From: Escherichia coli
GTDB taxonomy: Bacteria > Pseudomonadota > Gammaproteobacteria > Enterobacterales > Enterobacteriaceae
Assembly: GCF_003790525.1 (NCBI RefSeq)
Contig: NZ_CP033633.1
Length of the DNA: 64,000 nucleotides
Direction: 5' to 3' (one strand)
The position numbers and the translations under genes were made by a program. The notes below the pieces were generated by a model, which ran no database searches, was not told the origin of the DNA, and was given only the letters and a program-made list of their open reading frames with translations. Below, piece after piece: positions 12,327-13,790 of this stretch. The stretch's first letter is position 1. The number at the start of each line of letters is the position of its first letter.

Positions 12327-13790
12327 TCATACGGGAGATGGCGGTTCCCAGCGTTTATCCTGCTCCGGCGGAGGCAGTGATGCGTCATCGTTGCTGTTCG
12401 CCGCGATATAATCGCGGTAGTAGCGTTCACTTCCTTCCCGGTGATGATCCACATCCGGTCGTGTAATCCTGTAGTCTTCGTGACCGGTACGGCCTGTCAC
12501 ATTATGCCAGGCAACCATTTCAGCAAAGACCTGGTTAAATTGTTTGTCGTTTCCTTCTGGTTCAAAGCCCATTCTGGGATCACGCTCAAACAATACAGGT
12601 GCAATCAAATCCAGTTTATCTGCCAGCGCATTGCGGTCATGGTGATTACGGAAAACAACCCTGTCACCATAATCCGTACAGACAAACTCTCCCGTCCGAC
12701 GGTCACGGAAACGAACACTCCCGTTCTTCTGCAAACGGGCCTCGAGATCACCGGTATTACCGTATACCGGCGTTCCGCCCGGTTCACAAAGCACGACACA
12801 GCGGTCTGTTGTTGTTGTGCGTGACTTGTCTTTACGGCGATCGCGATAATCCCAGCCTCTCAACTGCGATACAGCAGCCCTGTCTCCCTGAGCAGCCTGA
12901 ATTTCGACCCACTGACGGTAAGAGGGTGGATACCACTTCCCGTCAGCAATAAGTTTCTGTCGCTCATCCCTGATGTCTTCTTTCAGCCTGATCAACGCCT
13001 GCATTCGCTGAACTTCTGCAATGTGATAATGCAGCTTACGTAATGCCGGATCATCGTACTGCGCACGAATGTGTGACTTCCGCAGACGGCATGCCTGATG
13101 AATTTCCCGACAACGTTCCCCATTACGCAGATCTGGTTTACGCCATTGTTCACGCCATGCCAGATAGCGGGCACGCAGGTCAGCACGGGCCTCAGCTCTG
13201 GCTTCACGTCGCTGCCGGCGCAGCATTGGGTCACGTTTACTGCTGACCCCGTACCTGTCACTGACAGCCAGCTCCGGGTTATAGCGACTTTCAGGTTGCA
13301 CCCTGTCAAACAAATCTGCTGGGGCACTCACAAAAGGTCCGGCCTGTGGCTCTGCACGCCCCAGAGTCAGATCAGGATGAATGCTGCTGGCCTTCACCGG
13401 CGTTTGCTCATGATTAAAGGCATCAACGACAACAAGCCCGTGATGTTGTTTCTGTAGCATCAGTCCCTGTTGTGCAAACAGCTCATGACAACGCTGCCAG
13501 GTAAACTCACCCTGTGTGATCATTTCTTCAATCTGAGGGCTACAATGGCTGATGCTGTATCCCCACAGACTTTCTTTATCAGAAAACAGTTCGCGTTTGA
13601 TATCCCCCTGCGGCCCCGTGCCTGTACGCATACGGTGCCATTCTTTATCGGTCGCAGGACAGCTCTCCATACGACGACCACGGAAGCGTTCTGTTGGCGT
13701 AACCTGGCGGAAAATATCTGTTGGTACAGGCTGCCAGCCACCATCGAGTTGATTCACATTGTCGAGCGTCAGCAGTGACCATACGGTGTC
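12327..13790 (-). pseudogene. Relaxase (NikB-like) C-terminal remnant lacking the relaxase domain
   Basis: From about QTPVRADTVW onward colinear with the C-terminal half of the nikB ORF at 41949-44651; the N-terminal part of the ORF is not relaxase-like. Confidence 0.7.

Follow-up and report, generated by a model that had tools for sequence, protein, structure and literature searches.

The window analysed here, a stretch of 64,000 nucleotides of an Escherichia coli plasmid (contig NZ_CP033633.1, assembly GCF_003790525.1), contains two sequences related to the relaxase gene nikB, an intact one on the plus strand and a second one, on the minus strand, which a preliminary description had considered a diverged C-terminal remnant obtained by fusion with, or capture from, a related conjugative plasmid and possibly still expressed as a domain-only protein. 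The questions raised by this locus are what the minus-strand sequence derives from, how it came to lie where it does and whether any product may be expected from it.

The ORF predicted mechanically at this locus (12327–13913, minus strand) starts with a GTG at 13913 and spans 528 codons, only a part of which derives from nikB. Homology with nikB was found to cover positions 12327/12334–13816, with codon-exact limits at 12327–13814, thus mending the interval 12327–13790 reported earlier. This 1,488 bp sequence is a 3′ pseudogene fragment of an IncI1-type nikB, comprising codons 405–899 and the stop, as indicated by nucleotide and amino acid identity, RefSeq PGAP annotation, Pfam and NCBIfam. 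The remaining 33 codons (13815–13913, minus strand) have no relation to nikB and represent a spurious 5′ extension of the frame, read through a repeat array lying upstream of vapB. BLASTP alignment of residues 36–527 of the ORF with residues 407–898 of the NikB encoded by the intact gene returned 329 identities out of 494 positions (67%), with 4 gaps, a score of 669 bits and E = 0.0. The colinearity with the C-terminal half of the intact gene, already noticed, was thus confirmed, the similarity being unbroken and extending beyond low-complexity segments.

A much closer relative was found outside the window. The fragment is 98.4–98.7% identical in nucleotides to the nikB genes of about 1,900 plasmids, identity with IncI1 nikB being confined to 12334–13816. 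The match at 98.4% runs gap-free across 1,483 bp, as expected for colinear descent from nikB, and the encoded sequence shares 99.2% amino acid identity with residues 405–898 of IncI1 NikB. The nearest full-length allele among these approximately 1,900 plasmids reaches 98.7%, and 13 nucleotide differences are specific to the fragment lineage when compared with three reference IncI1 alleles. The fragment is, indeed, already known and ordinary in itself, since it is annotated as a pseudogene and identical copies are present in public records: RefSeq PGAP labels precisely 12327–13814 as "IncI1-type relaxase NikB; incomplete; missing N-terminus" (coordinates mapped from plasmid pE15-3, NZ_CP119749.1). 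In the RefSeq record of pE16-3 the same ORF is given as "hypothetical protein", without a pseudogene flag.

Pfam analysis of the fragment retrieved TraI_middle alone (residues 108–196), and the Relaxase domain PF03432 (MobA/VirD2-like HUH nuclease) was not found. Accordingly with a partial protein, the NCBIfam model NF041893 (TraI_MobP_relax) scored 169.7 bits on the fragment, below its whole-protein cut-off of 250 bits and covering profile positions 179–496 of 502, compared with 415.9 bits for the intact gene. Neither nikA nor oriT was found beside the fragment, the upstream neighbour being a divergent vapBC pair; the preliminary description was therefore right in reporting neither a relaxase domain nor a nikA partner. 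In PMC12857230, citing Yoshida et al. 2008, NikA is described as recruiting NikB to oriT. Since PF03432, nikA and oriT are all absent from the locus, the fragment could neither nick DNA nor lead its transfer. What it retains is one complete TraI_middle module and the C-terminal ≈300 aa of NikB, a region that is uncharacterised: the last 300 aa of NikB gave no significant Pfam match, no PDB sequence matched the fragment at E ≤ 1, and the literature retrieved on nikB and ColV and on the NikB C-terminal region discusses neither the fragment nor a role of the NikB C-terminus.

The intact nikB (41949–44651, plus strand, 900 aa; assigned by Pfam, NCBIfam and alignment) lies outside the scar and belongs to the IncK2/Z backbone of the plasmid. 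Its product carries both the Relaxase domain PF03432 (residues 86–203) and TraI_middle according to Pfam, and the gene is directly preceded by nikA (41605–41937, or 41518–41937 with the longer limits; identified by Pfam), the sole NikA-like gene. This resident NikB is 70% identical to IncI1 NikB at the protein level and the allele is rare, with 8 PLSDB records at least 99% identical and 847 at 80–90%. The term "diverged", applied earlier to the fragment, has consequently to be reversed in polarity: it is the fragment that represents the canonical IncI1 allele, the unusual one being the resident intact gene. Other IncB/O/K/Z nikB genes match the resident one at 86–90% over the first ~2,185 nt only, the final ~517 nt (C-terminal ~170 aa) being distinctive. 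The plasmid would depend on its own nikAB for transfer, with the fragment contributing nothing.

The presence of two colinear copies in inverted orientation on one replicon, together with the unusual 3′ end of the intact allele, might suggest that they form a recombination pair, with exchange or gene conversion producing chimeric relaxases, or inversion of the ~28-kb segment between them. We consider this extremely improbable. The two copies are 67% identical in nucleotides, the identity is fairly even (50–76% per 150-nt block, with no block above 76%), the longest exact run in common is 17 bp, and no stretch of the intact gene resembles the fragment more closely than it does IncI1 nikB genes at large. 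Given such a level of identity and no mosaic block, gene conversion or recombination between the copies was rejected.

The limits of the fragment were resolved by base-by-base comparison with pI_050613 (IncI1) and pJJ1886_5 (IncF). Identity with IncI1 nikB stops at 13816, while identity with the sequence upstream of IncF-type vapB, as present in pJJ1886_5, begins at 13811, leaving a 6-bp overlap, TATGAT (13811–13816), that belongs to both. Short shared overlaps of this kind are typical of illegitimate, microhomology-guided joining. The vapB upstream sequence found at the junction is common in many IncF plasmids. NikB contains three tandem TraI_middle-like repeats and the truncation, at residue 405, interrupts the second one, so it does not coincide with a clean domain boundary.

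The partner at this right-hand junction is a vapB-vapC toxin-antitoxin pair (13999–14642, plus strand; Pfam MazE_antitoxin and PIN, PGAP vapB/VapC), divergent from the fragment. Upstream of vapB lies an array of six CATCTGCATAT-type units with an exact 17-bp spacing (13847–13959), presumably the operator bound by VapB/VapBC, and it overlaps the sole promoter-like site of the intergenic region, located on the plus strand at 13934–13962. The right-hand block continues in the window with an IS3-family insertion sequence (15149–16460, plus strand), ccdAB and resD, up to an IS1 at 20055.

At the opposite end, identity with IncI1 nikB breaks in the last two codons (…PSPG* in IncI1, …PSPV* here), with the position of the stop unchanged, thus placing the 3′ junction at 12327–12334. 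In IncI1 plasmids trbC converges on nikB at 36 bp from the nikB stop; downstream of the fragment trbC is not present, and its place is taken by a gutted IS200/IS605-family element (12126–12273) that has kept both ends and lost the interior. When compared with the tnpA/tnpB element on the Xylella plasmid pXF879-41, the tnpA-side end (12126–12218, including the last TnpA codons) results joined to the tnpB-distal end (12221–12273). Position 12139, within this element, is the left-hand limit of the DNA common to the window and to ColV plasmids.

Some further features of this side were recorded. The first 85 bp of the gutted element recur in 435 plasmids from several genera. A 19-bp copy of its end hairpin (12255–12273) is found at 59551–59569, 25 bp after the backbone trbC; its reading as a relic of a trbC-nikB intergenic terminator was dropped, as both halves of 12126–12273 are IS200/IS605 ends, and no Rfam match was obtained at E ≤ 0.1 in 11300–15300. 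A plasmid-borne cytochrome b562 gene with a signal-peptide-like N-terminus (11553–11960; Pfam E = 3.5e-15) lies between an IS1 and the mini-IS, an arrangement found solely in three records of the pE15-3 family. As for the resident locus, directly 3′ of the intact nikB stands a MazE/PemK-type toxin-antitoxin pair (44687–45312), after which come several IS elements and then trbC; since only 36 bp separate nikB and trbC in IncI1, I-complex plasmids seem to have an insertion hotspot between these two genes.

Both junctions were then used to define the distribution of the fragment. The left junction, between the mini-IS and the nikB 3′ end, was found in 83 PLSDB records and in 119 out of 5,426 complete RefSeq E. 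coli genomes, at 99.7–100% identity. The long form, containing the nikB′-vapB junction and the whole 1,488 bp, is present in only 10 PLSDB and 11 RefSeq records, and all of its carriers with retrieved replicon typing are I-complex plasmids, either IncK2/Z or IncI-gamma/K1. Between copies of the long form, 2 of the 1,488 nt differ. A short form of 434 bp was identified in 49 records among the matches listed, all ending at window position 12760, and in about 108 of the 119 genomes with the left junction two thirds of the fragment appear to be missing. The short-form carriers that were either checked or identifiable by name are IncF ColV-type plasmids (e.g., pAPEC-O2-ColV, NC_007675, and the plasmid of APEC IMT5155).

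Alignment with pAPEC-O2-ColV accounted for the missing portion. The segment absent from IncF ColV plasmids (12761–15148) includes the 5′ 1,054 bp of the fragment and vapBC, and inspection of the junction in pAPEC-O2-ColV showed window base 12760 directly abutting, at its terminal repeat, the IS3-family element that sits at window position 15149; the left terminal repeat of this element is thus the deletion endpoint in ColV plasmids. From this arrangement we infer that an IS-associated deletion of 12761–15148 turned the long form into the short one. In the same record (NC_007675.1, locus L003, 7660–7800) about 57 bp of the IS3-family end are followed by an N and then by CTGTCTCTTATACACAAGT, which is similar to a Tn5/IS50 end; this stretch of an old record may be a sequencing-transposon artefact.

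Plasmid pE15-3 (NZ_CP119749.1, 129.7 kb), from a chicken E. coli in China, is 99.97% identical to the window over the 20 kb surrounding the fragment, with IS-associated indels outside that interval; its near-identical sister pE16-3 is typed as IncK2/Z and has an I-type mating-pair system. Beside the IS1 at 20055 (20055–20823) the window is without 2.76 kb that are present in pE15-3 and contain the genes for colicin M and its immunity protein, the immunity gene of colicin B and a partial colicin B-type gene. Conversely, two segments absent from pE15-3 are present in the IS-rich nikB-trbC region of the window (46344–48604 and 56760–59456). In pLH10-b-1-A, another IncK2/Z hybrid, the fragment is bordered on one side by a metabolic gene cluster that pAPEC-O2-ColV shares, and on the other by an IncF-type block consisting of vapBC, IS3, ccdAB, an integrase similar to resD and the genes for colicins M and B. 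Elsewhere in the window, 4064–8104 contains genes for an MFS transporter and an operon for an ABC transporter (with substrate-binding protein, FecCD-type permease and ATPase), which may resemble eitABCD, an iron-uptake cluster present in APEC ColV plasmids.

Taken together, the fragment is very probably a non-functional scar, the 3′ 1,488 bp of an IncI1-type nikB captured once from an IncI1-type plasmid. The left junction common to all carriers and the lack of any full-length IncI1 nikB closer than 98.7% point to a single origin. Two illegitimate recombination events would have cut the nikB tail out of its plasmid: at the 5′ end the tail would have been joined to the vapBC upstream region through the 6-bp microhomology, and at the 3′ end the break would have fallen in the final codons, the gutted IS200/IS605-type element then replacing trbC. 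After this single capture the scar would have spread as a passenger of accessory DNA common to IncF ColV/ColBM virulence plasmids and to a small group of I-complex (IncK2/Z) hybrids of poultry E. coli, of which the present plasmid would be a member. In the IncF ColV lineage the IS3-family element would later have deleted a further 2.4 kb, leaving the 434 bp.

The plasmid type in which the capture took place may be discussed. The scar might have arisen in an ancestral I-complex plasmid, by fusion or recombination of an IncK2/Z-type hybrid with an IncI1 plasmid, the block reaching IncF ColV plasmids afterwards. The longer, less degraded form is found solely in I-complex plasmids (all those typed being IncK2/Z or IncI-gamma/K1), the IncF plasmids carry the derived short form, and the backbone shared with IncI1 is sufficient for cointegration. 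However, the fragment is not contiguous with any I-complex backbone: its left flank is non-I-complex (the mini IS200/605 with the metabolic cluster or the cytochrome b562 gene) and its right flank is the IncF-type vapBC, ccdAB and resD. Moreover, no other IncI1-grade segment (>95%) from the trbA-nikA region was found within the window, the remainder of the 9.5-kb IncI1 trbA-nikA locus matching the resident backbone alone, at 74–85%. We regard an I-complex origin of the scar as possible but rather unlikely; the block may have passed between IncF and I-complex plasmids in either sense. Non-I-complex flanks and an exact left junction in common with IncF ColV plasmids argue for an older capture carried along with the block, and not necessarily for a fusion with the IncK2/Z backbone; the fragment is a passenger of shared accessory DNA and not part of the present backbone. 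Therefore, of the earlier proposal of fusion with, or capture from, a second related plasmid, the contribution of a second I-complex MOBP type still holds, but the route has to be changed to an older capture, arriving by way of shared accessory DNA.

The possibility that the fragment is nonetheless expressed deserves consideration, as all 495 nikB codons are open, without stop or frameshift, in every long-form copy examined, and the same is true of the 528-codon frame. A C-terminal NikB protein devoid of the relaxase, retaining the complete TraI_middle module and the entire C-terminal region, could act as a competitor at the I-type coupling protein or secretion channel and, if so, modulate the transfer of its own plasmid or of co-resident IncI1 plasmids. 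The C-terminal relaxase isoform TraI* of F might offer a precedent by analogy. The changes with respect to IncI1 nikB are also chiefly synonymous (15–20 synonymous and 6–7 non-synonymous, pN/pS 0.09–0.14). Such a low pN/pS would fit continued selection, but is equally expected from divergence before truncation combined with young copies; the differences are probably older than the truncation, which would account for the synonymous bias, and the copies, at 2 differences in 1,488 nt, are too young for decay to be visible.

Other observations are against a product. By consensus scan, no minus-strand promoter-like site was found in 12000–14300, a result compatible with weak or read-through transcription, and no Shine-Dalgarno-like motif precedes any of the seven in-frame starts in the first 130 codons. 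The genes neighbouring the fragment are oriented oppositely. The first 33 codons of the frame come from the repeat array upstream of vapB, and the truncation falls inside a domain repeat. An isoform comparable to F TraI* would have an internal start with a ribosome-binding site and a co-expressed full-length gene; no such start was found, and there is no full-length gene at the locus. Finally, most carriers appear to have deleted two thirds of the fragment, which counts against selection for a product. The expression of a C-terminal domain protein, as envisaged in the preliminary description, thus appears very unlikely. Even more speculative, and highly improbable in our opinion, is that signals present by chance in the vapBC operator region drive transcription of the open 495-codon nikB tail, giving a catalytically dead NikB decoy that lowers or biases the transfer of co-resident IncI1 plasmids; were this true, a virulence-plasmid cargo would carry a relaxase-derived fertility-inhibition factor that coupling and secretion proteins of the I type still recognise.

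Of little importance in itself, the scar of IncI1-type nikB shows that part of the ancestry of the accessory block lies in an IncI1-type plasmid. The TATGAT junction at 13811–13816, the left junction at 12139 and, in ColV plasmids, the IS3-end cut at 12760 are unique lineage markers, and tie the IncF ColV/ColBM virulence plasmids to the small, recently noticed I-complex hybrids of ColBM type from poultry. In a 2025 genome announcement (PMC12243562), ColV/ColBM plasmids are described as "so far" IncF and an I-complex ColBM plasmid is reported as novel. As such a plasmid was still reported as novel in 2025, the I-complex hybrid class that hosts the fragment is only lightly described. The fragment may also partly account for the several MOBP hits assigned by MOB-suite in these plasmids; if this is the case, automated mobility or relaxase typing could count a dead fragment.

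When compared with known systems, the fragment shares with IncI1 nikB (R64/ColIb-P9 type, MOBP) the stop position, the TraI_middle module and the C-terminal region, but lacks codons 1–404, with the HUH domain and one and a half of the TraI_middle-like repeats, as well as an upstream nikA and oriT and a downstream trbC. In ColV/ColBM plasmids, the 434-bp "relaxase NikB" pseudogene belongs to the same lineage, being 99.7% identical and having the same left junction at 12139, but it is cut at 12760 against the IS3-family end and has lost the rest together with vapBC, so that the copy in the window is longer and less degraded. A stranded piece of an I-complex nikB, likewise annotated as nikB on an F-type virulence plasmid, is carried by pO157 (AB011549.2) and by related non-mobilizable EHEC plasmids. 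Using the resident nikB (41949–44651) as query, this piece was located at 51667–53159 of AB011549.2, and roughly 300 related non-mobilizable plasmids carry the same kind. The pO157 piece is nevertheless independent, as it is internal and corresponds to nt 691–2183 of an IncK2/Z-type allele at 85% identity, and not to the IncI1 3′ end; together with the fragment described here, it indicates that relaxase scars recur.
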